A stretch of 64,000 bases of DNA, counting the filler, from Basidiobolus ranarum (taxonomy: Eukaryota): NCBI GenBank assembly GCA_040143965.1. It is 5 parts of 5 records of this genome, joined end to end, with 100 filler letters (N's around TTAATTAATTAA, not from the genome) between each part and the next. Parts side by side here need not be neighbours in the genome. Positions count along the whole stretch, not along the records: positions 13,209 to 26,270 come from JASJQH010000505.1; 4 more parts are not named here. One strand, written 5' to 3'. Numbering within the stretch: the stretch's first letter is position 1; the number at the start of each line of letters is the position of its first letter. Positions 1,291 to 52,247 of the stretch are shown here, piece after piece. The notes beneath the pieces are model-generated. The model saw only the letters and a program-made list of their open reading frames with translations, ran no database searches and had not been told where the DNA came from. Both the position numbers and the translations under genes were made by a program.

Positions 1291-2869
1291 TCAATTTGCA
1301 AATCCAAGTCTTGTCCATAACAGTTTCTAATACCAAAACACTTTTGTCAAAAACACTAGGAACTTGGCTTTCACAAGTTATTGAGTTTGCAAAAACTTCA
1401 GAAGGCTCTTTTTCTAAACATATCACATATGAAAATCAACTACATCTGAATTGGTAAGTAACAGCATGCTTGATGGTGCCCTGTCATTCCAAATTGGGCT
1501 GGCACACTTTCTAACCGGTTTGATTTGGCTTGATAATATGGAGCCAGTCTATTGGTTCTTTTGGCATCAATTAAGGTGTTATAGGATCTTGCCATGAAAA
1601 CTGACAGATTGCACCAGATAGTGTGTTAGAAGGATTGATTTAGTGGCACAATGTTATTTGGTTTGATGGAACAAGACTTTTTATCACAGGACCCATCACA
1701 TTACCTACTATGACCAACTACTGGAACAGCATATGATAGCTTACTGATACTGTTTGATAAATGGATAACTGATGGTCCTGATAATAGCAATCTGGGACAT
1801 CACCAGTGTATAGAAAGTACCTGTATACTAATAATACTGAATATTGCTAAGCTTAACCAATACTATAGCTGCCATGGTTGTCAACTTATAACATTCTTAC
1901 TCAAAAGGAATATGCAGTCTCTCCTGAGTACTTCTTGCTATAATGCCAGTATTTGGGTGGTAACCCATTTTCTTGCAGTGTAGCTTCTTTGAGTTTGTAC
2001 AAGCTAATGGACAAAGTGTTCTTTGGCAATTCCAGGTAAATCCTCTGCTTAAATATCTGCAATGGACATTCTTTTGTAACTTCAGTAGGTCCTGTTAATA
2101 AGGTTTCAAACTTCTTGTTGTTTTTCTTGATAGAAGAAAGATTTCATGTGCAATTGGCGTGAGTTTGTGTTCTTGTTGGTATGTGTCTGCATTTTTGTCA
2201 TTCTTGCCTCTACTCTGACTTTGATAGTGTTTCTTTCCTCAGTAAGCTTCTCTTCTGATTTTGTGTCACATTTATCTAATTACTGATAATAGTGTCAAGG
2301 GGATTTGGAAGTGTCATGGACACGCTTTGAATTTGTGAATTAGACACTTAAGTTTTGTTGAATTGAGTATGTCTTATATGGTCACTGGCAATGTTGGGTG
2401 CTACAAAATTTATAGTACTAGTGCAAGCCAATTAGAATCTTCAATGGCATATATATCCTTTGGCTTATTAATTCCAGACAAACCATTGCAGCTGTATTGA
2501 TTTTTCCAGAGTAAATTGTGATATAGATTGAAAGTCAGATTGCCAATGCTAGGGTGCATCTGGCTTGACTGCATTGTAAGTAGAAACAATATACCCAGAA
2601 AGATTGCTACAAGATCCTACTCTATTTGAAGCCCTGCAGATCAAACCAAATGTGGATAGATCATTGCCAGCACTGTGGTTACTCTTTGTAGTAACTAATT
2701 TCAGCTGAAAAATACTCCAAATTGGAGCTTAAAAGCAACAAATACATGTTTATGGGTTATTGTGAGGGACACGTGGCTTGCAGACTATTTCTTTATGAAT
2801 CTGGAGCTAAGTAAGTGCTGAGATGAGAATTTTGATGCAAAAGCAAATGTTTCATCTTATCAACAGTAC

Positions 2870-4840
2870 TGCCATTCAGAAACTTTAGTTTATTGCTCTA
2901 ATTGATAGAAATATCAATTAGATCATGTTTACCAATTTCCACTATTTTCTGACAACTTCTCTGAATAACAGCAAAGACATACCCAAGCTTTACAGGCATC
3001 ATTGTCATGATTTAAGCACACACCATAGTCCTTGTACATAGTAAGCTGTAAATGGGACATATGAAATTTAGTAAAACCTATGTATCTTCACAATTTTTTA
3101 CCTTGTCAAAATACTTCCAAATCCCTTCAACACTTGTATCAGCTTACCAGCTCCAAACCAGCTGTTAAAGCAATGTCTACCAGTACTATTATCAATGCTT
3201 TTGCATCCACAGAGAAGTTTGAAGTTGAAGACCTTCACTTTGGGAAGTTCAAGATGTAATTGGAGCTTGATTACAAGGACCCTTTGGGATTGGTTACAGG
3301 TGAAGCAATAGAGCCAGAGGAACAACCAGAAGCTATCCTTGCCTTTCACAAGAAGTGGAGGAAACCACTCCCTATACTTTGTCTACATCTCAGAGACTCT
3401 AAATTGAGGCATATGAACTTGGCCAGCAACGTCCAAAATGTTTGGGAAAAACTTGAGGGACTTTATGAGATTAGAGGTCTGGCTAACAGGTTTCATTCAG
3501 ATGAAAATTATTCCTAATTCAAAAGGAATGTGCTGATTTTCCGGCTAATTGTATAAATAGGATACAAGCAATGGCAGATTGGCTCTCATTCATAGGAGCA
3601 CTTTTAAATGAAGATGACTTAGTCATGACACTACTTAGGAGCCTGCAAGATGAGTTTGGAGCCTTGTAATTGCCCCAAAATCAAGATCAGAGCCATGGCA
3701 ATGGAATGTGTTGGTGTTATCTTTTAAATGAGGTATTAAGGAGCTCTTATTCTCAGCAAAATAATACATAGCAGACCTTTTTGGGAGCTGTAAAGCATCC
3801 AACAGGCTCTAATAATGGAGCCCATGATAGATATTCAATCATTGGCAAGTATTGCTAGGAACTAGGCAAGTTGATCACAGAATGCAGAAAAAGAATATTT
3901 GTCAAACAGTTAAAATTGGAACAAGCAAATCAGGTAAGCACTAATAGAGATCACTTATTCATGTCAGCCCTATCAGTGACAACTAAGGAAGACTCAGAGA
4001 TGTGGCATGTTGCTTCCGGAGCTTCCCAGCATATATCAAGCAAGAAATATTGGCTTTCCAGCTGAAAACCCATCCAAACAAGGAAAGTCTACTTGGAAGA
4101 TGACTATGCACTAGATGCAATTAGTAAGAGCAAAGTTGTGCACAATTTAGACCAAAATTCAGCAACACCACTTGCAAAACTTGGATGATGTGCTTCATGT
4201 ACCATAAATAGCCAAGAATTTATTCTCAGTAATCCAAGCAACAGGTCAAGGACTAAATCTTATGTTCAGCAAGACTGTATGCACTACTTCAAATCAAAAT
4301 AACAACAAATTAGCTACTGGGACTACCACACAAAATAACAACAAGCTAAAAGTTAATACAATGCTTTCCAAGCAAGTAAACTTGGGCAAAACTGGTGAAA
4401 TGGCTGTCAAACATAGTATAGAACATTAGGCATCATTTGGGAACAAAGCTGACTAAAACAATCTAAAATTAGCTTGTTTCTGGCTCAAAAATTGAAAATA
4501 TCACCAGTTTAGATCTGTGTGATTGTTGTACATAAGAAAAACATCACAGAGAGTGGTTTTCAATATCTGGAGCAAATCAAGCCACTCAGAATCTTGCCCT
4601 GATTCATTGTAAACAATATGGGCCCATGGAAAGCATCTCACTAGGTGGCAAAAGGTACTTTATTACTTTTATTGATTACAAAACAATACAGATTTAGACA
4701 TTCTTGCTAAATCTTAATTCTGGAGACTTAACTACATTCAAGCACTTCAAAGCAATGGCAAAGAATGAATTGGTGCAAAAAATAAGGGTACTAATAAGTG
4801 ATAATGGTGGAGAAGACTGCTCTAAAGAACTTGGCTACTT
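2870..4840 (+). mobile_element. Decayed Ty1/copia element: LTR remnant, gag, zinc knuckle, protease, GAG-pre-integrase, integrase N-part
   Basis: 2870-3140 has pieces of the reverse complement of the 6434/10811 LTR; 3260-3517 is copia gag-like; WHVASGASQH is the copia protease W.xDSGAS.H motif; SDNGGE integrase motif near 4797. Confidence 0.85.
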
Positions 4841-5059: not shown

Positions 5060-5261
5060 TTTTAGTGGTAGACCTTATTAAGTTTTGGGGTTCTAGCTCA
5101 AGCTTCAAAAATCTGTATATTGGAGAGCTTGTAAATTGGTAAGAATATTCTGAGTAAATTGCAATTGGGAATAATGGGTAAAAGCTTGGTAAAATAACAG
5201 ATAGCTAAATATTAAGCTCCATTTGATTATATGGATGTTTATGTAAGGCCAATTTCAGCAC
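5060..5261. repeat. Degenerate LTR fragment related to the 18725/19535/51909 LTR family
   Basis: Aligns by eye with 18890-19072 and ends in ...AATTTCAGCA. Confidence 0.65.
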
Positions 5262-13208: not shown

Positions 13209-13684
13209 GGAAGACAACGCGCCTTGTCATACAGGTGGTTATGCAAAGTGGTGGAAGAGCAGTAACTCCTTGGACATTTTGGAGAACTGGCCAGCTCAGA
13301 GCCCAGATCTGAATCCAATCGAGCACGTTTGGAGTGAGCTGTCTCATGAGTTACATAGCCTAAAGGCAACTATTAAAGATACTGAAAGCTTGAATAAAGC
13401 TATAACCAAAGTTTGGGAAAACATGACGATTGAGTTTGCTTCGGGATTAGTGGCAAGTATGGGGAGAAGGTGCCAGGCAGTCATAGACGCCAAGGGCGAT
13501 GCAACAAAATATTGAATTGAATATTTTATTTTATCTTATAAAAATAAACATGTATAACTTGTTATACAAAAAATTCTAGGAAGTTAGTCCATGTTGTTCA
13601 TGAGTAAGTTGAACATAAAAAGTGAGTGTTTATTGTGCTTTTTTGCAATTAATTTTGGACGAAACATTACTAACCCCGACTGTA
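13209..13684 (+). mobile_element. Tc1/mariner DDE transposase C-terminus and right terminal inverted repeat
   Basis: DNAPCH...WPAQSPDLNPIEHVW...RRCQAVIDAKGDATKY* (stop 13515); ends ...CCCCGACTG followed by TA, typical of Tc1 termini. Confidence 0.92.
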
Positions 13685-15104
13685 TGTGACTGCTGTTTAT
13701 CACGTAGATTTTGGTGAGTAATACTCAGGTTTTACATCTAGTCAGATCACTGGTACATATATAATAGCATAGATTACATATAAACATTCAATCTCGATAT
13801 GAAGACCTTGCATAAACCAAATGGAGCATGGTACAAAAACAGAGTTTGAATACTCATTTTGGAACTAATTTCCAAAGAGTCGAGTTCAAATGAAAGTATG
13901 AACAGATTTAGAAGTAAGAAGACTCATCATGCCCATCGCGCATGCACTGGTGAAATTGGCAGCAATAACATTCAGGGGAGCCAATGGTACATTAGAGATG
14001 ACCATGTTCTGAGTTGTGCCTGGCATTAATTTCCATCGGGATCTAGTTATTGCGATCGAACACTGCTCTTGAGGACAGCTTAAACTAGAGGAATTTTACG
14101 TAAGCAGGAACCAAAATATTCTGGCTCATCAAACTAAAACTTGGACAATGCTTGTAACGATAGTAGCACATTCTTGTACCTGCATTATGTGAGATGTCCT
14201 TTGACCCGAATTACTCCTATTTACTTAAATATAGCCATATATTTACATACTGGTGTAGATTGGTATGGAGCACGTTGCTTGGCAGTGAGGTTAGAAATAG
14301 AAATACGACTGTTCAATAAGGCCATACTATGATATCAATACATCAACATTTACAGTTGTTTCACTACTGTAGCTTAATTATATTACCTTCGGCCTAATCC
14401 ACAATAATTCAATACTGTGCACTGTCACTATGATCGTATGTGTTATTCTAAGTGCTATTACTTAGTCTCACATTTCTTTACCGTTTTGTCGAAGCCTCCC
14501 TACCCGGAATGGTGGAAATTAATGTAGGATGGCAATTATCGTATAGAGTGTTAGCTCAAAGTTAGACTCTTTTACAGCGATGTGATGCCTATTGAAACAT
14601 TACTGAGCATGTGTATTATCTGACTTTGGATGATTTGGGAGGAAAATCTTTCGTGGTGGTGGAGTTTGCACTTGATTACCAAGTACTTCGATCATGTTGG
14701 TAACTGCTTTTGCTTTTCTACGTCATCACCTGGCAACTTCTCCGATCCCAGTTTGAAATTGGGATTCGGACCAATCCAGATATAGATTTGGATGCATAGC
14801 TATTCAGGGACTATACATCTGAGGCCTTGGTATCTCCTGACAACCTTCACCTAGCTGCTGGCGAATTAATAGTACAAAAAAACATTTCACAATACAAACA
14901 ACCTTGCTTGATGCTGCTTTGATGAAATTGGATACATATCCCTCGAATATATCCCCTTCGCAGTGATCAGTATAAATATAAGCAGTACCTCCAAAGAACA
15001 ATCCAAGTCAACTCTTCATTCTCATTCTTTTCCATCTTTAAGCGTAGAGAATCTTACTCAAGTCAGCTCTTGGAAGTGTTAAAGGATCCAAACTACTTAT
15101 CAAA

Positions 15105-16075
15105 ATGGGAACCATCACCGCGCCACTTCATCTGTTGTTCGAATCAAATGTCACCATGTCGTTGACGGCAATGTGTACAGTTGTCTTCGTCAACAATTTT
15201 TATCATTCCACACGGATGCTTCCAAATAATCAGAAATTGATTTACTACCTCTGCTTCATTCAATCTATGTTTGGGGCGATCACGAACATTATCAATGTAA
15301 TTTTTTTCTTTCACTTTGATCTCTTGTGCGGACCACGTATTTATCTTGCTGCAACACTCAATCTTTGCTCTACAACCTGCATCGAGACAATCTTACTGCT
15401 TAAGGCTTTCTACGGTGCTGACAGGTCTAAGATTATTTTCGCTATTGGTGCTGTACTTCAGATGGTCAGAGTTGCCGTTGGCATCACCAACATTGTTTTC
15501 ACTTCGCACATGATTACTCCTCTTCTAGCGTGTGAAGGAACAATCAATATGACAACAGGGATGCTGGTGGTCATCTCTGAGTTGATTCTTAATGCTTACT
15601 TCTCGATTGTGTTTTTGAGCTCTATGTACCGCCAATGGAAATTCGTTAAAACTCGTTTGTACGCCGCTCTTCTTAAAGATGGTACCATCTATTCGTTTGC
15701 CACTGCCTTAACCAGTATTGCAATGATCATCCTAGCCAGCTTTAGGGTGTTAGGAGATAATTCACCTATTCTATTTAATGTCAGCTGTAAGTTTACAACC
15801 GTTTATTTAGCATCACTTCAAACCTATTTCTAATCAGTGAACACACAGGGGCCGTGGCATCAAAGCTCATCGTAGAACAACTAATTCACACCAACAAATT
15901 GAAGAAAGAAGGAATCACCAACGAGAAAATTGGCACCAAGCGTACCAACAATACGGGCGGTATATCTTCCGATGGGAATCAATCCACCAACCCTGAACAC
16001 TCATATTTGGATGATTCGAAGAAGGATGGTGCATTCACCATTCAGGTAATATCAGAAATCGAATCCACCCCTTGA
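15105..16075 (+). CDS. Seven-transmembrane (GPCR-like) membrane protein, 2 exons
   Basis: Exons 15105-15786 and 15849-16075; the GT-AG intron joins NVS-W-AVASKL in frame; about 7 hydrophobic segments and a polar C-tail. Confidence 0.8.
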
Positions 16076-18724
16076 CCGCATTTACACTTTCGAACGAGAT
16101 GATCTTCAATCGATTACATAAGCATGCATATTCACATACCATGGTAAATTCTCCAGTAAATCCCAAAAGCCATAGGCTCTTCATAGGCACGGTTCTTTAC
16201 TCAGTTGATTACCATGTCTACCTAGATTTCTTTGCTTAGAAAATGTTTTGGCCCTATATCGAATCAATACAGTATCTGTACCCATGCATCACTATAATGA
16301 ACCATCTTTAATAAACGCTTTACTTTTCAATTAATCGGCAGCACCTGCGTCTATAGAAGCTGTTAGATACCGACAAATAAAGCATGTATCCAGTCGAACT
16401 CCACCGATTGAGCACATATGACACCGAGATACCTGTCACCAATCATATAGACTAAAGGATCTATTAAAGTGAATCGAGAAGATCCAATCACCACCCTGGT
16501 TTATCTTAATTCAGTGTTTCTGTTTCAGACAATATTCTAGCTCGCTCTAATACCACAAGTGCTACGACATTTACCTGTATTTCGTAGAGGAATGACATTA
16601 AAAATCTCTTTCTTTGATGAATTCGAGTTCAAACTAGTCTCCAACGTAGTGTCTGGGCTTTTAATTTCAAATACACATTGTGAAAGAAGAATTTGACGAA
16701 CTGTTAAATGAGCCAAACATATTCTTTTACAAGAGCAAAGTAAGTTATATGCAAACGATTGCTGCCTCTAAAAGTTAGACTGCTCAGCCAAATAATGAGA
16801 AAGTGCGGTAGGTAGTTTCACATAAAAAGTTTACTAGAAAAGTCATTTTCTACAACTGTATTTCATAGTTAAAAATACTCTGATGCTCACTGAAATATCA
16901 GTAAGGTAGCCTTTTTAGGTTGCACAAAAATCTTGATATACATGCACACTGCTCAAAGGGAGTTTCTCTCAAATTCCGATTATGAAGAGTCATAAGAAGA
17001 AATTTTGTACTTTGTGTGGGTTTGTAGCTTTACACCCATCAGGTATACTTCATACATAGCATTTTCCGGAACCGAACTGAATCAGGTTAGCAGTTTGATG
17101 AAATGCTCATATGCTTCTCCATGCTTTCTTTCGTAGCAAAAGGATTGTCAACAAAGGTATTTGCAGATAGAACTGGCCGATTGGGATATCCTTGAGCAAG
17201 CTGAATACCAGAAACGCATTACCAACCTGTACGGAAAAGTGCACTCTTACCATATGCGCTCTTACCGGAATGACTCTAACTCTAACCCATTTTGACCGAT
17301 CCAATCACTAAGATTCTGGGCTTTTACCAAGAGAGCAGTCCGGCATAAGTAGTAGTATAGTATTTACGATACTAATCCTAATCATAGCTGCACATGTATG
17401 CATGAGCCCTTATGAAAGATGATTGCATCTCAGTGCTCATCTCCTCCCCTAGTCCAACTAATGTTGCTAGTGATAATACTCTTTGATTGGGATGCTATGC
17501 TTATAGTAACTACTCAGGACCAAGGTTGTGAAAAGGAAAGATTCTCATTTGCCAAAAAGAAAAATCACAAGACCATTGCTATTTGAATCAACATGAATAT
17601 CGGTAGAGTTAGTAAGCATAGTTGTAGATGATACTGTCGTGTCAAAATAGGTGTATTCAGCAAATTCCCATATAGGTGCTCTTCATCAGCATGCGTGGAA
17701 ATCTGTATCGGGTTTCACATTGAAAAGGATACATAAGAGTGGCGCTGTGTTACAATACATAAAAATTTCAGACCAATGAAGCATCTTCTTATTTAGAATA
17801 TAATCTTAGCAAATTACAGGATCATAATGACCAGGACCAATTCGAAGTCCCGCCATCTACCATATGTGAAGTAGTAATTAAAGGCTAACCACCCTACCAT
17901 CTTACAACCAGATATCCTACTACCAATATGAATATTGTAGGTGGTTCGTCACATGCGACAAGCAGCAATGGTAATACGACAGGGAAACGATATGACTCTA
18001 ATTTCAACACATGCGAGTTATAATGGAAAAATATGTACTGGCTAAGAAGAAAGTTGAGGAAGCCATTTAACATTTCCTAAGTTGAAGGTGAATGTGAAGA
18101 AGCATGTATACCAATTTTTTATCAAATATTGCTAGAGAACAAATTGAGAACTATTACTGATGTAACATACACTTTACTTGGCCTTTAGTGGAGAATGAAG
18201 TGTAATTTGTAAATTCTTAGCATACTACAACGTATTAAAAAATACCAACTGATTTAGAGACGATACATTGCTAACATTCATACACTTGTGTCACATACAT
18301 TTTTTATTTGTAAAGGACATCATTATTCATGAACTGGAAGCTGATTGTGAGTTTTGTTTGAAGGATTTCATCAATGTTAGTGTTTTTAAAGAAGTCTTTT
18401 TGCCACTTTTCAATAACTACAAGCTAGACAAACAGAACGCATAATATAATAAAGAGCCTACAAAGATCTAATAGCCAAGTATTTGGATAAGTACTTTCGG
18501 TTCTCCTCTTCTTAACCAGTCTACATGAAGCATGCTAATCAGATGGTTTCTTATAAAATGGCAAAAATTGCTTGTACTAATCATAGTGAGGTCAACCATC
18601 TGCTTGAAAACTAAGTTAGAATGACTCTGAACTTACTTTTGAGGAAGAACAAAAGAGTTCAGACACTGGATAATGAAATGAACAAAAATGGGGAAAGTAA
18701 GAAAGAGATTAGGGCAGCCATAAA

Positions 18725-19072
18725 TGTTAAAATAGTTGGGAGCCTGTGGGAAGTGGTTTGGAGAATTAGAGAAATTGGTGGTTTTCCCTTGTTGATTTAT
18801 TGAGTATTCAGTTGACATTTATAGTTTTGTCAGGATGTAAGCAAATTAACGTGTAGAATGTGTTAAGGAAGGTCCCGGGAACATGGGTGCAAAGTTTGGG
18901 GCTTCTAGCACAAGTTTGAAAAATCTATATATCTGAGAACTTCTAAGTTGGTAAAAATATTCCAAGTAAATTCCAAATGAGAATAATGGATAATATCTTA
19001 GTGCAATATGAGATAACCAAGTACTAAGCTATATATGACTATATAGGTGTTTAGGCAATGCTAATTTTAACA
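18725..19072. mobile_element. Solo LTR inserted in the Fanzor ORF
   Basis: TGTTAAAA...TTTTAACA; flanks ATAAA/ATATA (TSD with 1 mismatch); homologous to the reverse complement of 19535-19864 and to 51909-52247. Confidence 0.88.
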
Positions 19073-19534
19073 ATATAGACATTGACAGAGCATATAAAGA
19101 AAGTCAAGATGGCTATTTCATCAAGAAATCTTTAGATTTTACTTAAAAAAGTCAAACAATTTGGGTAGAGTATGTACTATTTTTTGCTTATATTCAACAA
19201 ATTATTGATTTGAAAAAGACTTAATCTATTATGACTGCAAAAGTAACACTCTCAAGCATATAAAGGCATACACCAGACTGTCACGCATCTGCTACGCTCT
19301 TTAAAACAAGTCATTCAACTGCTTTCCATTAAGAGGCTTCATACCATCCTACATGAGAATTTTCATGTGTATTGTAAATACTCAAATTATGGAGTATTCT
19401 ATCACCAGCAACTTGACTAAAGAAGCAGTGTAGGGAATAAATATTGACCTCATATCAAAGTCAATGAAATCACAAGGAAAGAGCAAGTTAATAAGGTTTA
19501 AAGGTATGATGTACTTAGATGGTGCAGGCGTATC

Positions 19535-19864
19535 TGTTGAAATTAGCATTGCCTAAACACCCATATAGTCTTATATAGCTTAGTATTTAGTTATCCCATA
19601 TTTCGCGAAGATATCACCCATTACTCTCAAGAGGAATTTACTTAGAAGTTCTCAGATATATAGATTTTGATAACTTGTGCTAGAAGCCCCAAGCCGTACA
19701 CATCTATTTCTGGGACCTTCCTTAACACATTCTACACGTTAGTTTGTTTACATCTTGACTAAACTATAAAGCTCAACTTTGAACTCATTGAAATGATAAG
19801 TGAAAATCACCAATTTCTCTATTTCTCCAAACCACCTCCAACAGGCTCCCAAAGTACTTTAACA
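19535..19864. mobile_element. Solo LTR with perfect 5-bp TSD, opposite orientation to the 18725 copy
   Basis: TGTTGAAA...TTTAACA flanked by GTATC on both sides; removing it restores DGAG-VS-VLK. Confidence 0.93.
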
Positions 19865-22144
19865 GTATCAGTGTTAAAGTAAACCATAATACAAAGAAGA
19901 ACAGTGGAGGTGGCGATGGAGAAAAGTCAAAGTCTTTCGCTTCACAAGATGATTTTCAGTATGTGGAGAGGTTGGGAAGAGAAGAGTTGAAGACCAGTAT
20001 TGACAATTGTGTGCCAATTGATCGTGGATATTGTGGTTTGCTGTACTGCATGCACAAGAAAGTACTGCTAAAAACAAAATAGTTTACGAATATACAAGCA
20101 ACTAAAAAGCAATAGAAACTAAATACAGAATATTCAGGAAGCCCCGAGAGAACTTAAATAAGACCAAGTCAGCACAGCTGAGCATTCCCTATCATATTTG
20201 AAATCTTCAACTGCCAACAAAGACAAGTTTGCCAAGTTTCTTCAAGAAAAAGCCAAAGTCACTCCAGTCATGAGAGCATATTACTCAAGTGAAGATCACC
20301 CTGCAGGTGAAAACAGGCGTACCAGTAGTTTGTTACCTTTCAGAAAAATGAAGCTCTCAAATTTCAATAACCAACTACAATCAGACAAACGGCTTGCCAA
20401 GAATCTTTGAGAGAAGTTTGGGAATGATACTATATTAATACTTTATAACTGGTCAGCTGGAAATGAAAAGTATCGTGAGCCCAATAGGGGCGTCGGAATG
20501 AGAAAAATGTTAACCAAAGAAGGCTTCCAGCTATACCTCCTCCACGAGCTTAAAACTTCAAGTCTGTGCCCTACTTGCCAGAATGGTCAACTGGAAAAGT
20601 CAAAAAGTACAAAATCCTAGACCATACAAAAGAGAAAAGTATCCTATTGTATATCATCATGGCCTTTTAAGGTAAACGCTTTTTATACACAAGTAAAAAA
20701 TGCAAACCTAATTTCTGTTCAGGTGCAAAAACCAGCAGTGTTTAAAGGTCGTGGCCAGTACTACTGAAGATTCTCCTCTTTGTCTTTGGAATCGTGACCT
20801 GACTGCTACTTTGAACTTTGGCATATCCCTTTTAACTGGCGCTCAAATGGGGAAAGACCAGAACGTTTTTGCAGATTGAAAAAACCTCTCTCCACCGGGT
20901 ATAAAAGAAAGGGTATCTCGTCAGCTAGCAGCAGGCGACCAACGAAGAAAACAAACAATCCTGTGTGGTTATTGCTACACTAAACATTTGATACAGAGTA
21001 AATTTCTTTTGCCATGTGTCTGAGATTATCTCCAATTTTGTGCCATCATCCCATTTATTTTATGAAATGTCTGATCGATTTTTTTAATTTCTCTCATTTT
21101 AGATTAAAACACTGTAAAGTTGGTTTCTGAGGTAAGGGTTTACGAGTAGAAGTTGGAGCAGGCATTGCAGTCATATTCTGAGCTTTACTTCTTGGCTAAA
21201 TACATAATCCTGGTAAATAATCCGTTTGAAGTTTACCTCAAGGTAAAGACATTTAGGACTCAGAAAACGAATATTACCATGGGATTCCTGTCTTTTTCGC
21301 GAGGAATTTTACTCGATAAAGTGGAGTCAGGCTTCTTTACAGAGCTCATGTTTGTTGAAATCACTAAATAGTAACACTCCACATCTCTATTATCATAAAC
21401 AATTGATGTAATAAAGTTCCATTTCCGGGAAATTTTCTTCAAATTTTACCAAAGCAACAAACAAAACCTCATCCAATTAAATGGATGATTGGATTTTCAA
21501 TAAGAAATATCTAGTTGATAAGCACTAAGAAATTTGAAATGGATCACTAAATCATTAAGTTGACCTCAATTTTGAATATTCAGCGTAGGACTTGGTAGCT
21601 TGTACAACCATGAAGAGAGTATGCCGTCAGTCGTAACAATCTTCCTATAATCTGGAGCTACTAACACATGCACTGGTACTCTGCTTACTGGTGAGCTGAG
21701 ACAGCAAGTACGGAAGAATCTATGAACCTGGCTTGCTTGCTAACGAATATCTCTATTGGTTTTCCCCGGCCAGATGTGGAGATTTGTGCATAAAACCTTT
21801 TGCTTTCGCAATCAACGAATTAACCCCTGCAAATAGACACCAAGAGCTCTTCATTGCTGATGATCAGTTAGAGGCAATGTGGAGATACTATCTTCAAGCG
21901 TAATCAACTGGACAGCAAACATGCTTTACCGATGATCTCCACTTGCCCAACAAATATCTTGAATACTTAAAGCTAATCATGGCACAGGCATGCTAGAAAT
22001 ACTTGCTTTAAGGAATCACTGTCATTGCGGATAGGTAGAACTACCGATTTATTGAAGCTCAAATATGTGATTTATACATCCCAACATCCACAAAAGAGGT
22101 AAAAGATACCATGCTATCTTGAATATTCTGGGGCTTACTCCAGC

Positions 22145-22928
22145 TTAAGCTACAAATACTTTTTCACGATAAAATTTCAGCTCTTTGATTGTATCCTTGA
22201 TGTCATCTAGTGCTCGATGGTTGGGGTTCTTCTTCGGAACATTGGAGGCAATTTGGGGATACCATCTACGTGTGAGTTCTTTGATGGTACTCACATCTGC
22301 ATAAAACTGAGGTTTAGCGGTAATGTTTAAGATATATCAAGGTTACTTAAATATATACCAATGATACGATAATGCAAGAATTCAACCAAATCTGGGAACT
22401 CCTTCGCCAAAAAGGTTTTGTCAACATGAACAGAGTTTCCTGCCAAAGGAGCTATCTTGGGTGTTTTGATATGCTTTCGTAGGAAGTTCATAATCTCAGT
22501 ATTGGCCTCAGATACTGTAACTGTGGAGGCTAGCACCGCCGACGTGAGTCCCGACTAAATATGCTTGTGAGAAATTGGCTTTTCTTTCTCGAATAGAGGC
22601 TGAACTTACTTGTCCATGTTGATTGATGCACCATTCATTCATATTATCCATCACTTCTTTAGGATAGTGTATAATGAGTTCAGGTCCCTGAATTCAAGAC
22701 ATCAATAAAAATAAGACGTTTGATCATGTACTTAGAAATGCACTCACCTCAGCGATCACATTAAGTTGGCCGTCGGTAATCAAGATAGCCAATTCGATGA
22801 TATGATCAGTAGAGAGATCGAGACCGGTCATCTATATGAACATACCACATTAGCTGTATTGAATAAAGGAAAACTCGGAAGCGCTTACATACCTCACAAT
22901 CAATCCAAACTATAGGTTCTTCAGCCAT
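22145..22928 (-). CDS. REX2: Oligoribonuclease (DEDDh exonuclease, Orn/Rex2), multi-exon
   Basis: [71 protein letters not shown]. Confidence 0.95.
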
Positions 22929-24035
22929 CTTAGAGTTCAAGGTTGTCAACTAACACAAAGGTATCGATCAAGTTACTATATTGATTGCCTACAAATATTT
23001 TATGAGCGATCGTCTAGGTTGATTATTAACCAGAATTTGATATAAAAACAAATTACCATCGAAAAAAATACATGCTTATTACCGATTTTGGTGATTCTTA
23101 TATACATAATATGTCTACTCGTTTAATTTAAAATCAATAATTAGCAAGCAATGCTTGGCGTCCAACGATGAATGCACCAAACAACATTCCAGACATTCGC
23201 CCTCCAAACCGTTGAATATCTACAAGATAGCCATGGTCTGTAGGCACCGGCATTTTTTGAATTTGGTCGAATCAATGTTAATCCGGTAACAACCTATGTC
23301 TCATTGGATGTTTGGCTTACTGGGATTCGTTACAGGTGTGCTTACGCCAGCTGATAAATGCAAATATCGATGCAATGGTACTGACCAAGTGATATATGGA
23401 GAGCACTCCTATGGATAAACAACCACACAGCCAGTGGTAGAGTCTGGTCTCATATCGGGGAATAGCTGGGGGATAAACTCCGAATCTCGCTATTTTGGAT
23501 AGCAATTCTATCCATAACTCCGCTGAACCCTGTAGAGTAGTCGAGTATGTAAAAACACTAACAAGTACATACATTGCCAAGTGGTTTCATTTTGGTCCGC
23601 AGCCCCATCATACGTGATACTATCTTTAGTGCGATTCATCCCTTTTTTTAATCAATAATTTCGGAGGATCGGATCTAATAGTTACCGCTTGGAAATCGGC
23701 TCAACCATTATTGGATGCAATAAACTACTCCTATTCTTCAAATATAATCCGGAAAAGTCAATTTTGGGCATCATTATGTGTTAATTAGATATTTAAAAGG
23801 CAGCTCCTATATCAGGCTGAATGTGAATTTGTTTGGCTGCCGACCTTGGCTTCAAATGTGTGTATTTCTCCAGATCGCCCTATAAATTCCCCGTCCCTCT
23901 TCAAATTTCCGATTCCTACGCTATTCAAGTTTCTTGTCATCAACTCTTAGGGTTGCCGCGGTAAAATATTTTACTCTTCGTACAACTCCACTTTCGACTC
24001 TCTGGCCTGCTTATTCATTCTGCCTTTTCTTCCTG

Positions 24036-25118
24036 ATGGCTTCGCCTAAACTGTTTACGGCGTCAGAGGTAGCTGCCCATGACTCTTCCAAAACCGCCTG
24101 GGTTATCTACAAAAACAAGGTTTACGACATAACTACGTTCCTTGACTCTCATCCAGGTGGAGACGAGATCGTTCTCGAATATGCAGGAAAGGATATTACA
24201 AAGATCCTACCTGACATTGATCTTCATGAGCATTCCGAGTCAGCATATGACATGTTGGAGGATATGTGTATCGGCCAGTTAGACGTTGAGGAGCAACAAA
24301 ACGCCAAAATTGTTACTCTGACCCCCAATGGGCTCAAAAAGCGCAAAGAACCAACTGAGAAGCTTGAGGAAGAAACCGACTTGATAAGCAATACAGATAC
24401 CAAGAAGGACTTCCAAAATCAGCAATTTTTGGACTTGGGCCGCCCTCTGGTCTCGCAAATGTGGAATAACAACTTTACGAAAGAATTTTACCTGAAACAG
24501 GTCCACACACCTCGTCACCTTCCTCAACCTGCTATTTTTTTCTCTAATCCTTTGTTAGAGCTGCTAACTCGGACGCCTTGGTATGTTATACCAATTATTT
24601 GGTTCCCGATATCCATGTACTTCCTTACGAGCGCAACAGCTATTGTTTCAACTCAATGGTCACTCTTGTGCTTTGTTTCTGGGATTCTACTTTGGACTGG
24701 GCTAGAGTATGCCATTCATCGTTTCTTGTTCCATTTCGACGACTCATTACCCGATCATCCCAAGGCTTTCTTGATTCACTTTCTGCTACATGGTGTTCAT
24801 CATTACCTTCCTATGGATGGATTAAGATTGGTAATGCCCCCTGTGCTATCGTTTACTCTCGCGACTCCTTTAGTCCACTTGGGCTATCTGTTGTTTAACT
24901 CTGGCACTGCAGAGGGAGTGATAGGCGGCACCCTATTTGGCTATATGTGCTATGATTTGATTCACTACAACCTCCATCACGCACGACCACTCCTGGACTA
25001 CCTACGCCAAATGAAGACGTACCATTTGGATCATCATTATAAAGACTACGAGGAGAACTTTGGAATCACGACAATGATTTGGGACACCGTCTTCCATACT
25101 ATGCTCAAAGCCTATTAA
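24036..25118 (+). CDS. SCS7: Sphingolipid fatty-acid 2-hydroxylase with N-terminal cytochrome b5 domain
   Basis: HPGG heme motif; histidine boxes HRFLFH, HGVHH, HYNLHH, HLDHH; RLVMPP; intronless from ATG 24036. Confidence 0.95.
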   Translation: MASPKLFTASEVAAHDSSKTAWVIYKNKVYDITTFLDSHPGGDEIVLEYAGKDITKILPDIDLHEHSESAYDMLEDMCIGQLDVEEQQNAKIVTLTPNGLKKRKEPTEKLEEETDLISNTDTKKDFQNQQFLDLGRPLVSQMWNNNFTKEFYLKQVHTPRHLPQPAIFFSNPLLELLTRTPWYVIPIIWFPISMYFLTSATAIVSTQWSLLCFVSGILLWTGLEYAIHRFLFHFDDSLPDHPKAFLIHFLLHGVHHYLPMDGLRLVMPPVLSFTLATPLVHLGYLLFNSGTAEGVIGGTLFGYMCYDLIHYNLHHARPLLDYLRQMKTYHLDHHYKDYEENFGITTMIWDTVFHTMLKAY

Positions 25119-25833
25119 ATTAACCTATCTAACCTAATTTGATTCTAATGAAATAGTTTCCATCCGAAATGTGTGTACCTTTTGTAAATCTTGTAGTCTT
25201 TTGAAGAGATTTTGTATCGCTTGTCTTAGAGGATTGATTATTTCCCTACGCTTTCTTTCATTAATATAGCCTCAGTCCAAGCACGATTATTACTACCTTA
25301 TTATGGAATATTTCGTATTACTACTAAACCGCCATACTAAATCAATAAATAACTCGAAGTCAATGTGAAACAGCGATATTGGCAGTATCCCTTAAGTTCT
25401 GTCTCAATTTTTGGGAATGGCAGTTGATTTACCCTCTCAGTATCCCTGGGTATTAGGGTAATTAACTTTGTACATGAAAACAAGTGACACAGCACCAGCA
25501 ACCATTGCTGCATCGGTTATCGCCCAATGGCATGGCCTCCCGACTCGGTCATGCCGAAGGATTGACCATCATGTGAAATCAATAAAGATTCCATGGACGA
25601 GTCACGAACACAAGTAGAGCCGATAATGAAATGACAAATCCTGACCTGATCTATAATTTATCCACCGTATGGTTACGACAATAGCCGAAGGCATGGCTTA
25701 GATTACTCTACTTGGTGTCTATCCCCACCAGATCCACTGATCATTCGAACTTTCCAAACAATTCTAATTTATTGGAGTGGTTGCATTTTCTCTAGGTTCA
25801 AATGGATCAAAGCAATATACACTGACTACACAC

Positions 25834-26270
25834 TCATTCAAAGTACCATAGGAGATTCTCGCTATCGTTACCACCAAGCAACAGGCTAGCGTTGGCGTGA
25901 TAGTCGATGGAGTTAATGGAGAGTGGGTTGAAGACTGAGCTCAACTTTTGATAAGTGGGGGTATCATCTGTATAATAGCCATATTGGTCCTTTTCTTGTT
26001 GATAGCTGAGGATCGAGCACATTCCATCTATATCGGTCAACGTGTTAGTAGAACATCAATCATGACGGATACGCTATTTTGAAGGATTACCATTGGAGCA
26101 ACTGATGATTTTCCCGGGAGAATTAGGATGATACTTGACTTCCCATACTAATGGACAGCAACGCATGTTAATGGCACATACTCAACTACATCAAACATAT
26201 TAGGGATCCTCTTACCATAAGACGAATGAACAGAGAAGGGGTTAGATTCGGGAATCTCTTGATTTCTTAT
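25834..26270 (-). CDS. WD40 protein C-terminal exons, Nup43-like; truncated by gap
   Basis: VHSSY|VWEVKYHPNSPGKIISCSN and LSINSIDY..LLLGGNDSENLLWY resemble the Nup43 motifs WEVHFHP..CSEDG and SVNTLD..CGTDAEAIY. Confidence 0.65.
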
Positions 26271-39412: not shown

Positions 39413-39512
39413 NNNNNNNNNNNNNNNNNNNNNNNNNNNNNNNNNNNNNNNNNNNNTTAATTAATTAANNNNNNNNNNNNNNNNNNNNNNNNNNNNNNNN
39501 NNNNNNNNNNNN
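39413..39512. other. Assembly gap with linker
   Basis: N run with TTAATTAATTAA. Confidence 0.98.
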
Positions 39513-40096
39513 GATATGCTGTGAGCAAATCCGTCACAATATGGCCCCTTGACCAACCGTCATAAAGGGCATGATGCATGGTCCATATGAAGTAGTCGGC
39601 TGAATCTTGAGTCCGGATTACTTCAAACGGAATAAGGAATTCTCCTGCATGAATTCCTTGATTCTTGTCCTGTTGTAAAATAACCTGTAGTTCCTCTTCT
39701 ATCATCGAACCATGTCTCAGTTCATGAACACTCCATTCTATATCATTCCTATTTAGGACTACTTGCAGTCCACTTAGATGTTCGAATCCGCTTGCTGAAA
39801 ATACACATATGGTGCGGTGGATAGGATTTACGTGAATGACAGTCTCCCATGTAGATCTTAAGCGATCACAATCGAAACTGGGATTGAAACGATACACTTG
39901 TTGATTGAGATAATACAAATTACCCTTCAGACCAAGAGCAAGGAGAGCCTCTTGAAGGAGAGAGCAGGGATAAATGTCCTCAATATTCTTCAAGTCAATG
40001 CCATTTTGTGATATATCGCAATCCCGCAAAAGGTCAAGGTCATCTGGCTCGAGTCCAAGCAGTGAGAATCGCTCAATCATCCTTGGCGACTCACTG
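39513..40096 (-). CDS. NRPS condensation domain (partial; runs into gap)
   Basis: IEDIYPCSLLQEAL, NPIHRT and FIWTMHHALYDGWS (HHxxxDG catalytic motif). Confidence 0.9.
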
Positions 40097-40294
40097 TCAG
40101 AAATACGAGGTATGTTAGCCTAAGCATTATTAGGTAGCCATCAACTATACTTTAGCCGAACCTTTACTTAATGTTGGAATACTAATATATTCGATTGATT
40201 TAGGAAGAGGCTACATGATTTTGCTGTCTATGCATCAACGATCATTTGTTACAAAATGCGTGGTATGTTTAGTGGTTTGTATGCTTCAAAGACT

Positions 40295-40371
40295 ATTTGT
40301 TAAAAAATAGGTGACTGTTAAATTTGTTACAAAATAGGTGACTGTTAAATTTGTTACAAAATAGGTGGCTG
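40295..40371. repeat. About 2.8 copies of a 27-bp tandem repeat
   Basis: Unit ATTTGTTACAAAATAGGTGACTGTTAA. Confidence 0.9.
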
Positions 40372-41241
40372 GGCCAATCAATTTCAATGAATTTTATAAA
40401 ATCGTATAAGGTGTGGAAAGATTTAAGGAATGTCAATCGAATTTCTTAATTAGGCTGATCCTAAGAATACTTTAACCAGTTTTGGAGATTTTACCAATAC
40501 TTATATCGGATGTACGCACAGCCATCATTGCCTTACATTGATCCTATAAAGTCACAAGGAGATAAAGTGAAATGGGGCACGTCATTTACCATGATGTACA
40601 CTTCCATTATCCTAGTATTCTTCTTTTTTCGAAATAGTTTGCATTAAAGAAAGTTTGCTTCAACAGTTAGCTTTCTTGGGTTTATGACAAATACATACAT
40701 ACATCATATCCTTCAATTTCTATACAATTTGAAGCTGCAGATACAAACTAGCATCCTCGATAGAATTAGACCAATACTGTATTTCGCTAATGTTACTTTA
40801 TTGATTTGGTATTATCGTAATGTGCTAGTCACTAGCTTGGCTACCCTGACTGCTATTATAAATAGGCCTAACCCTATAAACCATGAATAGAATCAAATTT
40901 ATTATTAATTCAACTTTATTTATTATTATTACTGTACAACAACCAAGTTGAGTTAATAGATAATGCACTGGGCATTGACAGCATAAATAGCAGGCAAGAC
41001 TGTGGCGGACCATACAGAATCCTGACCACATGACACGTTCTTTTACCTCCATTGTTTACTGAGACAACTATACCAAGTTTGAGCAAAAAGGATTAACGTT
41101 GACGCGAAAGTCAATAAATTCAGCTACATCGCACCAGGCATCATAGAGTATGCCTATTCACTCAATCTTCTACTAACATCCAGTATTACCTTTTGTGGTA
41201 TCCACTCTCGAAACGTATTCTTGTTGCTTATTGAATATCTA

Positions 41242-44075
41242 ATGTCTAATGCTTACAAGAAATCTCTAGGTTCCATGAAGACTCAATGTATGGACATCGC
41301 AGTAATTGGTATGGCTTGTCGCCTTCCAGGAGGGGTGGAGAATTTAGAAATGGTATGGGACCTCATTTCTGGAGGTACGACCCCTATTTCAAAGTGTGTC
41401 CTCAATAATGCAAGTACCCAGGAACAGGTACGTTCAATAGGAACTAAGTTTAAATAATCCTGGTCACCCAACTTTACTTATTTTTGTAGATAGCTAGCAC
41501 TGCCCAATCTCTTACCAATGATATTTCTCTTTTCGATGCTGATTATTTCTCAATGACATCCAAAGAGGCAGAGTCCATGAATCCTCAGCACCAAATTTTA
41601 CTTGAGGTCATGTACGAATCTTTAGAAGCGGCTGGTATCCCAATGGAAAAGGCTATGGATACCGAGGCGTCATGCTTTGTTAATGAGAAGTTGTCTCAAA
41701 ATGAAGTAGCTATCTGCAAAGCAACTGAGCTCAGTCACTCATTGGCAGTAAATCGGATATCTAAACTTTTGGATTTAAAAGGTTACTCGGTAGTTATGGA
41801 TACCTCGTCATCCCTGGCCGCTCTTCACTTGGCAGTTCAAAGCCTTAGAACTGGCAAAACTAAAATGGCCCTGATTGGAGACTCTCAACTAGTGATGGGT
41901 CCAGACATTCTTGGGTATGGATATTCTTTCATGGTTCTTGAGCTGCACATTGCTCATACTTACATACTTGGTTCTCTTTCATGTGATAGCTATTCTCATG
42001 GGGAAGGTGTTTGTAGCATTATTCTAAAATCCCTGAATGATTCAATTCAAGATGCCAATCCAATCTTAGCTGTCATTCGCAACAATTCATTGAGTTCAGA
42101 TGAACCAACCTCTGGCACTACTGTCCCTTCGGCTAAAGCGCCTTCGCTATATCAAAATGTTGGGCCTGGTGATATAAGCCACTTGAAGAGTGATGCAGGT
42201 ATGGCAGGCCTGATTAAAGCAGTCCTATGTTTCAAGAACGGGAAAATTCCACCCAATCGGCATGTTTTACAACCAACCTCTAGTCTTGATGTTGATATAT
42301 GGAATATGAAGATTCCCACATCACCCGTAGACTGGCTCACCTATGTTGAGGCTGATACCACAGAAAATGGAAAGATTATACCGTGCCGTATGTCGGCTAA
42401 CTCCTTTAGTTTCCATGCCACTATCACTCATATAATTCTCGAGTGTGCGGAGCCTTACATAACCGAGAATGAATCCCCGACGACCCAAATCCCGCTGATC
42501 ATCCCTTTGATGGCAAAAACTAAGGATAGTGGAATGATGCTGCTGCAAAAATACAAACTGTTTCTAAAAGTACTATTATTAATCTCACTTTGTTGAATTT
42601 GAACCACATTGCTAACATGCCATTTTATTCACAGAAATTTCCCAAAACAAATATTTTAGACCTGGCTTATACGTTAGGATGCCGACGAACTTCTCTTCCC
42701 TGGCGTCATTTCGTCATAGCATCGACTATCGACGAAATAACTAAAGAGTATCAACAGTCAGCCTCAGCAAACTGGTTCAAAGTTAATTATCAAAACCAAA
42801 AGGCTTTGTTTATATTCAGCGGTCAAGGAGCTCAATGGTGGGCAATGGGCCGCGAGTTAATTATTGGATCTATGCTTGTTCGTATGACATTATTGAAGTG
42901 TGATAAGGCTCTGAAATCTCTGAAAGACGGACCGAAGTGGTCTATAATTAGTGAGACTTTGGAAATTTTGTACTTCATATTATTATTACTCATCTTTTAC
43001 CGTTGACTTCATTTTCTTAGAGGAACTTCTCAAACCCAGAACGGAATCCAACGTAAATTCTACACTTTATTCGCAACCTTTATGCACTGCTCTCCAAATA
43101 GCACTGGTTGACCTTTGGAAGAGTTGGGATATTGTCCCTTCGGCAGTTGTAGGGCATTCTTCTGGAGAGATTGGTGCTGCATATGCTGCTAATCTTATCT
43201 CGGTTGAAGATGCTATGGCAATAGCATACTATCGTGGCTTACATATGTCACAGTGTACACTCAAGGGCAGCATGTTGGCCACTGGTAAATCATTTATTAT
43301 TGTACTTGATATAACATCATCCCATTTTTAAGCAAGTCACTTCCTTCATACAGGCTTAACAATGTCAGAAGCGGAATCTTATGTTAACAGCTATGATGGC
43401 CGAGTATCTCTTGCTGCAATCAATAGTTTTAAAAGCACTACTCTATCTGGTGATAGTGATGCTATTGAAGAGATTCATAACACCCTCAAAGAAAGAAGTA
43501 TTTTTACAAGTATTCTCAAGGTAGACTTTGCTTTCCATTCGCATCATATGGTTCCCCTTAGTCTTCCTTATAAGGTAGCCCTAGAAAAATACGATCTTGC
43601 TTTATCATCACCAGGCAAAGTCAAAATGTTTTCTTCAGTTACTGGAAAGTTAATCACGAATGAGAAAGTGGACGCAACCTACTGGAAACGTAACATGATT
43701 TCCCCAGTTTTGTTTTTTAACGCAATACAATCAATGCTAGAATATACTAATGAGTCACAATCAACGATGAATGTCTTGGTTGAAATTGGCCCGCATTCAA
43801 CTTTTCGTAGTCCAATTAATCAACTCCTTTTAAATCTCGACCAGAAAAATAACACTATCGAGTATCTTCCTTCTTTAACTCGTGGTGAACATGCATTAAG
43901 AACGATTCTCGACGCGGCTGGGAAACTCTTTTGTTATGGGTTTTCTATAGATTTAGGAAAGATCAATTCTGTGGAGATGTTGGACGCTTCTACTGCTACC
44001 ATTTCCAGTAAGAAGGGCCATTGTCTTACTGATCTACCAACTTACGCTTGGGATCATTCGAAAATCTACGAATGA
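41242..44075 (+). CDS. Type I PKS-derived KS(inactive)-AT didomain protein
   Basis: Introns 41428-41489, 42570-42634, 42951-43020 and 43285-43353 give one open frame; [48 protein letters not shown]; stop right after LPTYAWDH. Confidence 0.85.
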
Positions 44076-44858
44076 AAGTTTTAGTATTACGGCGATGAGA
44101 TTTAACGGTAATAAAGATTTTGTGCAATGAACCTAGGAATCTTATTGTAGAAATGATAGACATATATATACGAATATTCGAAATTGAACAAAAAGCCCAC
44201 AATTTTAACTACAATTGTGCTTTGAATGATGCTTTAAATCTGGGCTTTTATTGGTTTATCAGGTTAAGACAGCAGAGATTATGAATAGCCATAAAATTCT
44301 TCAAGTAGGCCAATTTCATCAGTGAGTTTACCAACGATTAATACAGGCTGAGATAAGTAATTCAAGGATTGTCCAAAAATTGGCGGATTCTTGGAGCACA
44401 AATTGCAATATTTAGTGAAAAATAAATATTGGTAATCTTTCACTAGCGATATTTAGGGTTAGTTATTTTTATCGAACTTATGAAGGCCTCGTAGTTCAGT
44501 AGAAATTTGCTAATGGTGTTGGAAACAGTATGTAAATGCAAATGCTTACGTGTATGATAGAGATTACCTAAACATCGAGAGATACATCAATACGGTTGGT
44601 CCACACAGGCCATTGCAGTTGCTGATTAATACTAAATAATAACCGCAGTGAACCTTCGTTTGTTTTGATTGCTAGTATGTAAGCTGCGGAAGCCTTCAAA
44701 AATACACACCATCTATTGTTCAGTTTTTTTATTATCATCAGACCAACAATTCATCAATCGTAATAATTGGTTAATCTGTAGGCCACGTATCTTTAAATTT
44801 CCATATAAAAGTCATATCTTTGGAGCTACAAACTACAATCTGATTCTTCGAAATTAAC

Positions 44859-45792
44859 ATGACTACCCCACGTGTTTGGCTCATCACTGGCTGTTCCTCT
44901 GGCTTTGGCCGAGAGTTAGTTCAGGCTGCCCTGAATCATGGTGACAAGGTTATCGCAACTGCTCGTAACCCTGCAAAAATCGAAGATCTAGTCCAATTGG
45001 GAGCACACACCCTCGAACTAGACGTTACAAGTTCTCCATCCGAGTTGCGTCAAAGAATTGAGGAGGCTATAAAAGTCTATGGTAAAATTGACGTACTAGT
45101 TAATAACGCAGCCTATGTACTACAAGGAGGCATTGAGGAAGCTAGGTAAGTCAAAGAGTTCAGGATTAACATCAAATTTGGTTTTCATTTTACTGAACAT
45201 CTTGCTTTCTCACCATAGCTCTGAAGAGACTTTTGACCAGTTTAATACCAATGTATTTGGCCTGCTGAACGTTACGAGAGCTGTCTTACCGGAAATGCGG
45301 TCACGTAAATCTGGCACAATTGTCAATATAGGAAGTATTGGCGGGTGGAGGGGTACTCCGGGTGTTGGTTTATATTGTGCTACCAAATTTGCACTTGCAG
45401 GGATTTCAGAGGCTCTCCAAGCTGAGACCAAACATTTGGGTATTGATGTTATGCTTGTGGAACCAGGATATTTCCGCACCTCTTTACTACGTGGAGGAAA
45501 CAGCACATCTGCCTCGGCTCACATAACAGATTATGATGAGTCTATCGGACCCATTAGGAAAGCACTTTCAGATATCAATAATAAGCAACCTGGAGACCCT
45601 AAAAAAGGAGCTCAAGTCATTATTGATGTTGTTACGCAGAGTGGAGCTGCAAAAGGTCGCGGAATTCCAGTGCGACTTGCCCTAGGATCAGACGCACCTG
45701 TGGAGATAGAGAACAAGTGCAATTCAACACTGGAGCAGCTTGAGCTGTGGAGAGAGATTAGTAGTAGTACTGATCATGATGATGTAGCCTAA
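44859..45792 (+). CDS. Classical short-chain dehydrogenase/reductase, 2 exons
   Basis: TGCSSGFG, NNA, YCATK, EPGYFRT; intron 45146-45218. Confidence 0.93.
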
Positions 45793-51908: not shown

Positions 51909-52247
51909 TGTTAAAGTATTTGGTAGCCTGTTGGAAGTGGTTTGGAGAATGAGAGAGATTGGTGGTATTGACTTATCAAACTATTGAGTAGAAAGTTGAC
52001 ATTTGTACTTTTTTCAAGATGTACATAAGCTAACATGTGGAATGCATTAAGCAAGGTCCCAGAAACATGTGTGCAAAGTTTGGGGCTTCATTGAAGAATC
52101 TTTACATGTGACAACTCCTAAGTTAGTGTCAATATTCTTAGTAAATTCTGATTGGGAATAATGGATAATATCTTAGGGAATTATAAGATAACTGAGTACT
52201 AAGCTATATATATCTATATAGGTGTTTAGGCAAAGCTAATTTCAACA
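51909..52247. mobile_element. LTR copy of the same family as the Fanzor-inserted solo LTRs
   Basis: TGTTAAAG...TTTCAACA, colinear with 18725-19072; no TSD (TAAGA/CTTAG). Confidence 0.88.

Follow-up and report, generated by a model that had tools for sequence, protein, structure and literature searches.

A dead Fanzor1 gene in a Basidiobolus ranarum assembly, broken by two repeat insertions and related to transposon-borne genes of Rhizopus

Introduction

Fanzor1 proteins are eukaryotic nucleases of the TnpB/Cas12 type, guided by an omega RNA that comes from the 3' end of their own transposon. Here we describe the relic of a Fanzor1 gene in a stretch of 64,000 nucleotides, filler included, from the Basidiobolus ranarum assembly GCA_040143965.1, which consists of five parts of five records joined end to end and is called the window throughout; the relic lies in the part derived from JASJQH010000505.1 (positions 13,209 to 26,270). 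It runs on the plus strand from about 18195 to 20983, within an AT-rich region (GC content 0.34-0.42), and is colinear with Fanzor1 proteins of zygomycete fungi once two insertions of about 340 bp and an intron of 51 nt are removed. Judged from its sequence, the locus is a dead Fanzor1 gene, a pseudogene of an already known family. The best explanation overall is very probably a dead copy of a Fanzor1-bearing transposon, spanning approximately 18195-21116 (+); how this element entered the genome is weighed separately and with less confidence.

Gene structure and identity

The N-terminal part of the gene (18195..18724, +) covers approximately positions 37-192 of the family profile A2, a hidden Markov model (HMM) of 679 positions built from 40 relatives, and corresponds to the REC/WED region, with the ATG at 18195 as a tentative start. 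The profile matches it in pieces at 18253-18441, 18453-18512, 18516-18611 and 18615-18800 (all +), and in a frameshift-aware alignment it shares 67 of 177 residues with the relative P0015. Beyond a first insertion (18725..19072, +), the middle part (19078..19534, +; HMM positions ~185-340) ends in DGAGVSV (19519-19539) and is identical to the Rhizopus arrhizus protein P0005 at 90 of 153 residues. A second insertion (19535..19864, -) separates it from the part that begins with RuvC-I and holds the first half of the zinc ribbon (19870..20671, +); this part is recognised by matches to PpFz1 (the Fanzor1 of Parasitella parasitica), by the A2 profile and by frameshift-aware alignment (169/262 residues identical to P0005). 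There follow the intron (20672..20722, +; GT..AG, phase 2), placed inside the Arg codon of HGLLR|CKNQQC, and the last exon (20723..20983, +), supported by the A2 profile and a PpFz1 match, which encodes a basic C-terminal tail, closes with a stop at 20981-20983 and is identical to P0005 at 58 of 80 residues. Taken together, the three C-terminal segments (B, C1 and C2) share 317 of 495 residues with P0005 (64%).

The identity of the gene follows from searches with its individual fragments, with family proteins and with the profile. The 69-residue fragment at 20411-20620 matches PpFz1 (PDB 9CF0) at E = 3.5e-18 and SpuFz1 of Spizellomyces at E = 2e-4; a weaker match to PpFz1 comes from 19804-20082 (E = 0.009), and a further one from 20712-20879 (E = 0.0099), colinear with the others. 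WD40 structures that ranked above PpFz1 for this last fragment are an artefact and were dismissed because they sum weak repeated matches to 'LWNRD', no single stretch being significant. A word-indexed protein search with the 69-residue fragment returned four proteins from 23 candidates, the closest being from B. ranarum (75% identical), R. delemar and R. arrhizus (72% each). Searching with the Rhizopus protein gave 279 relatives, of which the best 120 (299-952 aa) were used; the named ones among these are nearly all from zygomycete fungi and include PpFz1 itself (P0050). No Basidiobolus protein is among these best 120 of 279, which speaks weakly against annotated intact copies. Most of the listed relatives bear the precomputed label PF26935.1.

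When 122 family proteins were compared with the window by tblastn, none of the 509 high-scoring segment pairs at E<=1e-3 fell outside 17000-21100. When the window is cut into its 2856 stop-to-stop pieces, 11 match the A2 profile at E<1e-4, all of them on the plus strand at 18253-20980 and ordered over HMM positions 37-679. With all matching pieces colinear and on one strand, and no segment pair elsewhere, the Fanzor1 signal is far beyond chance. The profile also recovers all three solved Fanzor1 proteins, PpFz1 at 3e-267 (being a member of the alignment), SpuFz1 at 3.4e-100 and GtFz1 of Guillardia at 3.3e-21. An earlier reading of this DNA, made from the sequence without database searches (the sequence-only reading), had assigned the locus to Fanzor1 and proposed a profile search as a check; the search is significant, and the structural matches together with the profile scores on SpuFz1 and GtFz1 bear out the assignment.

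Catalytic motifs

That reading had also listed the motifs of a Fanzor1 nuclease with all three catalytic residues surviving, and each element is indeed present both in the sequence and in the alignments, the D, E and D codons falling on conserved columns. The RuvC-I motif CVPIDRG..LLYCMH lies at 20010-20055, and its D codon (GAT, 20020-20022) aligns with a column that is D in 40/40 relatives and with LMDPG of PpFz1. The RuvC-II motif LLHELKTS occupies 20540-20563, with the E codon at 20546-20548 in a column that is again E in all 40 relatives; the conserved D next to this E ('DE') is now H. The C4 zinc ribbon retains all four Cys codons, in CPTC (20567-20578) and CKNQQC (C-x4-C, 20724-20741), the codons of the second pair being 20724-20726 and 20739-20741. 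WNRD (20787-20798) stands 17 residues past the last Cys and carries the RuvC-III D codon (20796-20798), whose column has D in 31 and N in one of the 32 non-gap rows.

According to passages of Yoon et al. 2023 (PMC10711439), the fingerprint of Fanzor proteins is DPG together with an alternative Glu six residues before CxxC. In the relic, H-E-LKTSSL-CPTC (20543-20578) places the Glu six residues ahead of the first CxxC, the position called 'Ealt' in that text, so the remark that a RuvC-II Glu just before the zinc finger is a Fanzor1 trait proved correct. The motif D-X(125,275)-[TS][TS]-X-X-C4-X(5,50)-RD, given for Fanzor in sections of Bao and Jurka 2013 (PMC3627910), can likewise be read in the relic.

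A few observations weigh against the identification. A Pfam search of six stop-free fragments of the window found no relevant family, and the intact relative P0002 gave only a sub-threshold match to a Cas12f1-like TNB domain (E = 0.036). Moreover, where the fingerprint has DPG at RuvC-I the relic reads DRG; the Pro column is conserved in at least 90% of the 40 relatives, and DRG would fit decay of a former DPG.

A probable right transposon end

Downstream of the stop codon, the 3' untranslated sequence and what is probably the right transposon end (20984..21116, +) include the remnant of a terminal inverted repeat (21046-21116), which ends ...AAAACACTG|TA. Its counterparts come from a scan of metagenome contigs, in which 599 candidate stretches yielded 291 that encode relatives, and 80 loci were retained. 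Among the latter, the Rhizopus-type locus L001 encodes a protein 99.6-100% identical to R. arrhizus P0005 and is 72-78% identical in DNA to the window over 18270-20983. It is bounded by inverted repeats of 135 nt (1721-1855 and 4446-4580, 89% complementary) with the ends TA|TAGTG...CACTA|TA. The segment 21046-21116 matches both repeats of L001 (blastn, 75% over 71 nt and 87% over 39 nt) as well as locus L003, and the terminal ~70 nt of the relic are conserved with Rhizopus-type loci (alignment A3). From these matches, the relic appears to retain the right terminus of a TA-flanked element with inverted repeats and Fanzor as its only gene. L001 also has an intron, of 59 nt (4038-4096), in the same codon as the relic's GT..AG intron, whose limits agree with those given by the sequence-only reading; 41 of 51 aligned bases are identical between the two (80.4%), and L003 has an intron at the same position.

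Against the description as a transposon stands the missing left end. A fuzzy search of the window with the reverse complement of the right end returned only an element at 58068-58328, and a Smith-Waterman comparison of L001 1721-2312 with window positions 15000-18269 scored 15, within the range of shuffled sequences (mean 14.6, maximum 19), so that the term draws on one end and on the comparison with Rhizopus. The TA flanks and the terminal CAGTG/TAGTG are likewise the sole grounds on which the element might be placed in the Tc1/mariner superfamily. A guide (omega) RNA scaffold would be expected within 20984..21116, where it is putative; the predicted fold of the last 70 nt is no better than that of shuffles (z +0.47, +0.79, -0.69 and -0.36). 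The guide RNA of PpFz1 has only 75 nt and short stems, as stated in parts of Xu et al. 2024 (PMC11423790), and the Rhizopus-type loci available for comparison at the 3' end are two and near-identical.

The element at 58068-58328 is itself about 260 bp long, and its inverted repeats of ~30 nt are similar to the termini of the Fanzor element (TACAGGATTTTACTCCAAAAT.AGACGAT compared with TACAGTGTTTTAATCTAAAATGAGA); it probably belongs to the same transposon family, as a miniature member that has lost internal sequence. In L001, a frame change near 2430 in a run of T (2187-2432 versus 2356-4041) reflects either a true lesion or an error of assembly, and it implies that the models P0002 and P0005 start downstream of the likely true N-terminus (MEPPLK...). 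A 301-codon open frame also runs off the start of that contig (1-906), just outside the left inverted repeat.

Horizontal transfer or vertical inheritance

A fatty-acid 2-hydroxylase gene at 23886-25118, 3 kb from the relic, is 78% identical to its homolog in B. meristosporus and 72% to that of B. ranarum, compared with 47-53% for Glomeromycota and 47-50% for Mucorales. By this single gene the host genome is Basidiobolus-like, yet the relic is nested among Rhizopus Fanzor1 sequences and has an intron 80% identical to that of L001. For this reason we somewhat favour the view that a TA-flanked inverted-repeat transposon carrying Fanzor1 crossed fungal phyla, passing between the lineages of Rhizopus (Mucoromycota) and Basidiobolus, and that the relic and a B. 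ranarum fragment record this event. At 64%, the relic is as close to the R. arrhizus protein as are the R. microsporus copies (63%). Its identity to L001 is 85%, 84% and 77% at codon positions 1, 2 and 3, and the synonymous divergence between the element and Rhizopus is about 0.25-0.3 per site.

In the maximum-likelihood tree, the window and the B. ranarum fragment (support 98) are sister to R. arrhizus and R. delemar (99), with R. microsporus next (95), and this group lies inside a mucoralean clade. An approximately unbiased (AU) test rejects a topology in which the 33 rows of the mucoralean clade stand together without the two Basidiobolus rows (log-likelihood difference 82, p=0.00014). The relic's closest named relative, the B. 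ranarum protein P0001 (181 aa), passes from CKNQQCLKAV straight to the C-terminal tail and lacks WNRD; this copy is probably also decayed, or mis-modelled.

The alternative is that the relic was inherited vertically from an ancient Fanzor1 lineage common to the ancestors of Basidiobolus and Mucorales, its closeness to Rhizopus being an artefact of paralogy, sampling or slow evolution, which we consider unlikely. In its favour, many zygomycete fungi have the family, Zoopagomycota (for example Syncephalis and Coemansia) among them, and a single genus can hold several paralogous lineages, one R. microsporus protein (P0054) grouping with Parasitella. On the other hand, an intron 80.4% and third codon positions 77% identical to a Rhizopus-type element stand in contrast to a conserved host enzyme that shares only 47-50% of its residues with Mucorales; the AU test rejects a position of the relic outside the mucoralean clade, and the named Zoopagomycota copies (Syncephalis and Coemansia) belong to the other major clade.

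Several points nevertheless tell against transfer. The tree is a quick search of 50 rows and 614 columns with support from approximate likelihood-ratio (SH-aLRT) values only, and the group for the AU test was chosen after inspection of that tree, both of which leave room for vertical descent. The P0001 row fills only 26% of the kept columns, and for the window the row was obtained by reading through 12 breaks, each entered as X. The identities of intron and third positions stand without a host nucleotide benchmark between Basidiobolus and Rhizopus, the identity of the host is taken from one gene, and any direction of transfer presumes a root outside the Rhizopus clade.

Two insertions of one repeat

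Insertion 1 is a solo-LTR-like repeat (LTR, long terminal repeat) of 348 bp with TG..CA ends, flanked by the 5-bp target-site duplication ATAAA (18720-18724) / ATATA (19073-19077); insertion 2 is a 330-bp copy of the same repeat, also with TG..CA ends and with a perfect GTATC duplication (19530-19534 and 19865-19869). The sequence-only reading had described two LTRs. They are indeed real copies of one repeat, oriented as inverted rather than direct copies (one pair of arms, 213 nt long, is 84% complementary and another, of 113 nt, 86%), and we infer that they are solo LTRs. The two deletions it had proposed (18725-19077 and 19535-19869), each an insertion with one copy of its duplication, restore the frame at both junctions, AAIK|TLTEH and DGAGVSVLK. 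By tblastn, residue 182 of P0015 ends at 18722 and residue 184 starts at 19079, while residue 340 ends at 19538 and residue 341 starts at 19873. Both insertions are missing from L001.

The ~340-bp repeat occurs again at 51909-52247 (full) and 5080-5255 (partial), with 75-80% identity to the relic's two insertions; the 5-bp sequences on either side of the copy at 51909 (TAAGA / CTTAG) do not match.

The insertions could instead be short non-autonomous DNA transposons, that is miniature inverted-repeat transposable elements (MITEs), or a single foldback element carrying a piece of the gene, a possibility to which we give little credence. The ends of the repeat do form a 9-nt inverted repeat (TGTTAAAAT...ATTTTAACA), all four copies in the window are solitary, and none of the 18 open reading frames (ORFs) scanned, out of 19 of at least 130 aa in the window, encodes a reverse transcriptase, an integrase or a transposase. 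Against MITEs, the combination of TG..CA ends with 5-bp duplications and a size of 330-348 bp is the classic signature of solo LTRs. A foldback element is ruled out because the 457 bp between the copies resume the Fanzor protein exactly (residues 182 to 184 and 340 to 341), each copy has a target-site duplication of its own, and L001 has uninterrupted sequence here.

Decay of the coding sequence

Apart from the two insertions, the frameshift-aware alignment counts seven frameshifts and eight confident stops. In the N-terminal part the frame shifts near 18300 and again near 18451, and stops occur at 18442, 18513 and 18612, with further stops (18186, 18210 and 18255) in the weakly aligned start of the relic; in the middle part it shifts once, near 19133, and the stops are at 19206, 19302 and 19431. 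Between RuvC-I and the intron, frameshifts lie near 20056, 20160 and 20597 and stops at 20103 and 20408 (TGA, 20408-20410), with one additional frameshift, near 19875, read by eye from the sequence; the last exon has a frameshift near 20820. The open frame of an active nuclease is thus absent and the copy is a pseudogene, as had been proposed from its stops and frameshifts: about eight frameshifts, at least eight in-frame stops and two insertions bear this out. That the locus is still a working gene, its stops, frameshifts and insertions being introns or assembly errors, is extremely improbable: the codons for D/E/D and for the four Cys do survive, a genuine intron is present and fungal Fanzor genes are known to have introns (L001, L003), but the breaks fall within what is a single open frame of 561 codons in L001, the seven frameshifts and eight stops are scattered across ~2 kb, and the insertions start with TG rather than GT, have target-site duplications and belong to a repeat that recurs in the window at 51909-52247 and 5080-5255.

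Neighbouring genes

The scanned ORFs of the window are otherwise ordinary fungal genes and a cluster resembling those for polyketides and non-ribosomal peptides. At 39457-45792, ORFs with Condensation (minus strand), ketoacyl-synthase, acyltransferase and short-chain dehydrogenase domains suggest a secondary-metabolite cluster of the polyketide synthase/non-ribosomal peptide synthetase type. Downstream of the relic, two adjacent open stretches of 63 and 75 aa (22145-22554, -) resemble exons of a host gene.

Discussion

The element would have been a small non-autonomous DNA transposon whose sole gene encoded Fanzor1. In a live copy, as extrapolated from characterised relatives, the protein would bind an omega RNA from its own 3' end, recognise a short motif beside a matching DNA target and cut it with a RuvC site built from the DPG Asp, the RD Asp and, six residues ahead of the zinc ribbon, the 'alternative' Glu. 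Entry into the Basidiobolus lineage would most likely have been by horizontal transposon transfer, from a Rhizopus-like mucoralean or through a shared vector, and would have been followed by decay through the two solo-LTR-like insertions into the coding sequence and the accumulated frameshifts and stops. The copy would now be inert, its right end alone remaining and its left inverted repeat no longer detectable.

As a gene this is a minor find, since the family is well described, Fanzor1 genes abound in zygomycete fungi and the present one is dead. It illustrates cleanly how an element dies, with two nested insertions and their intact target-site duplications confirmed by an 'empty-site' relative. 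Newly described are the comparison with L001 (intron and 135-nt repeats), the surviving right end and the occurrence of a Rhizopus-type relic in a Basidiobolus-like genome; no literature naming both Fanzor and Basidiobolus was found in a search outside of which most subscription journals lie. If the transfer is true, a Rhizopus-type Fanzor1 with unsaturated neutral sites in such a genome would exemplify concretely how Fanzor spreads among distantly related fungi by transposon transfer, in this case recently enough for intron and third positions to be still 77-80% identical. It would imply that Fanzor1 elements use their own transposons to travel between distant fungi, and Basidiobolus genomes may then still contain copies that are less decayed or even live.

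Comparison with known systems

Among characterised Fanzor1 proteins, PpFz1 (PDB 9CF0-9CF3) is colinear with the relic from the middle of the protein to the C-terminus and shares with it the RuvC-I region, E-x6-CxxC, the Cx4C pair and LWNRD; PpFz1 is intact and active in vitro, as reported in parts of Xu et al. 2024 (PMC11423790), whereas the copy in the window is dead. The tblastn segments of the window skip PpFz1 residues 575-665, and P614 and P616 belong to the FRI insertion domain according to the same portions of that paper; the Fanzor1 family of the window therefore appears, on this alignment, to be without the FRI domain.

The nearest relatives, the R. arrhizus and R. delemar copies (P0002 and P0005, annotated 'hypothetical protein/transposase') and L001, have the intron position, the right terminal sequence and the C-terminal tail of the relic. 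L001 retains both 135-nt inverted repeats, has no insertions and is open but for its one frame change near 2430, whereas the relic is without its left end, heavily broken and placed in a Basidiobolus-like instead of a Rhizopus host. The Mariner-type Fanzor1-only elements described in sections of Bao and Jurka 2013 (PMC3627910) show the architecture that the relic's element would have had, with a single Fanzor1 gene, inverted repeats and TA flanks, and Rhizopus and Mucor families are already listed there. No matching Mariner transposase partner was found for the relic, although no search was aimed at one.

Finally, the bacterial TnpB proteins (IS200/IS605, IS607) and Cas12 share with Fanzor1 a split RuvC domain with a zinc ribbon between RuvC-II and RuvC-III, and, as in Fanzor, their guide RNA is encoded by the element's 3' end, according to passages of PMC10711439. 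The relic differs from them in its Glu, six residues before CxxC instead of ~50 residues upstream, and, unlike bacterial TnpB, it has a spliceosomal intron and a eukaryotic host, while its relatives read DPG where bacterial TnpB has D-hydrophobic-G.

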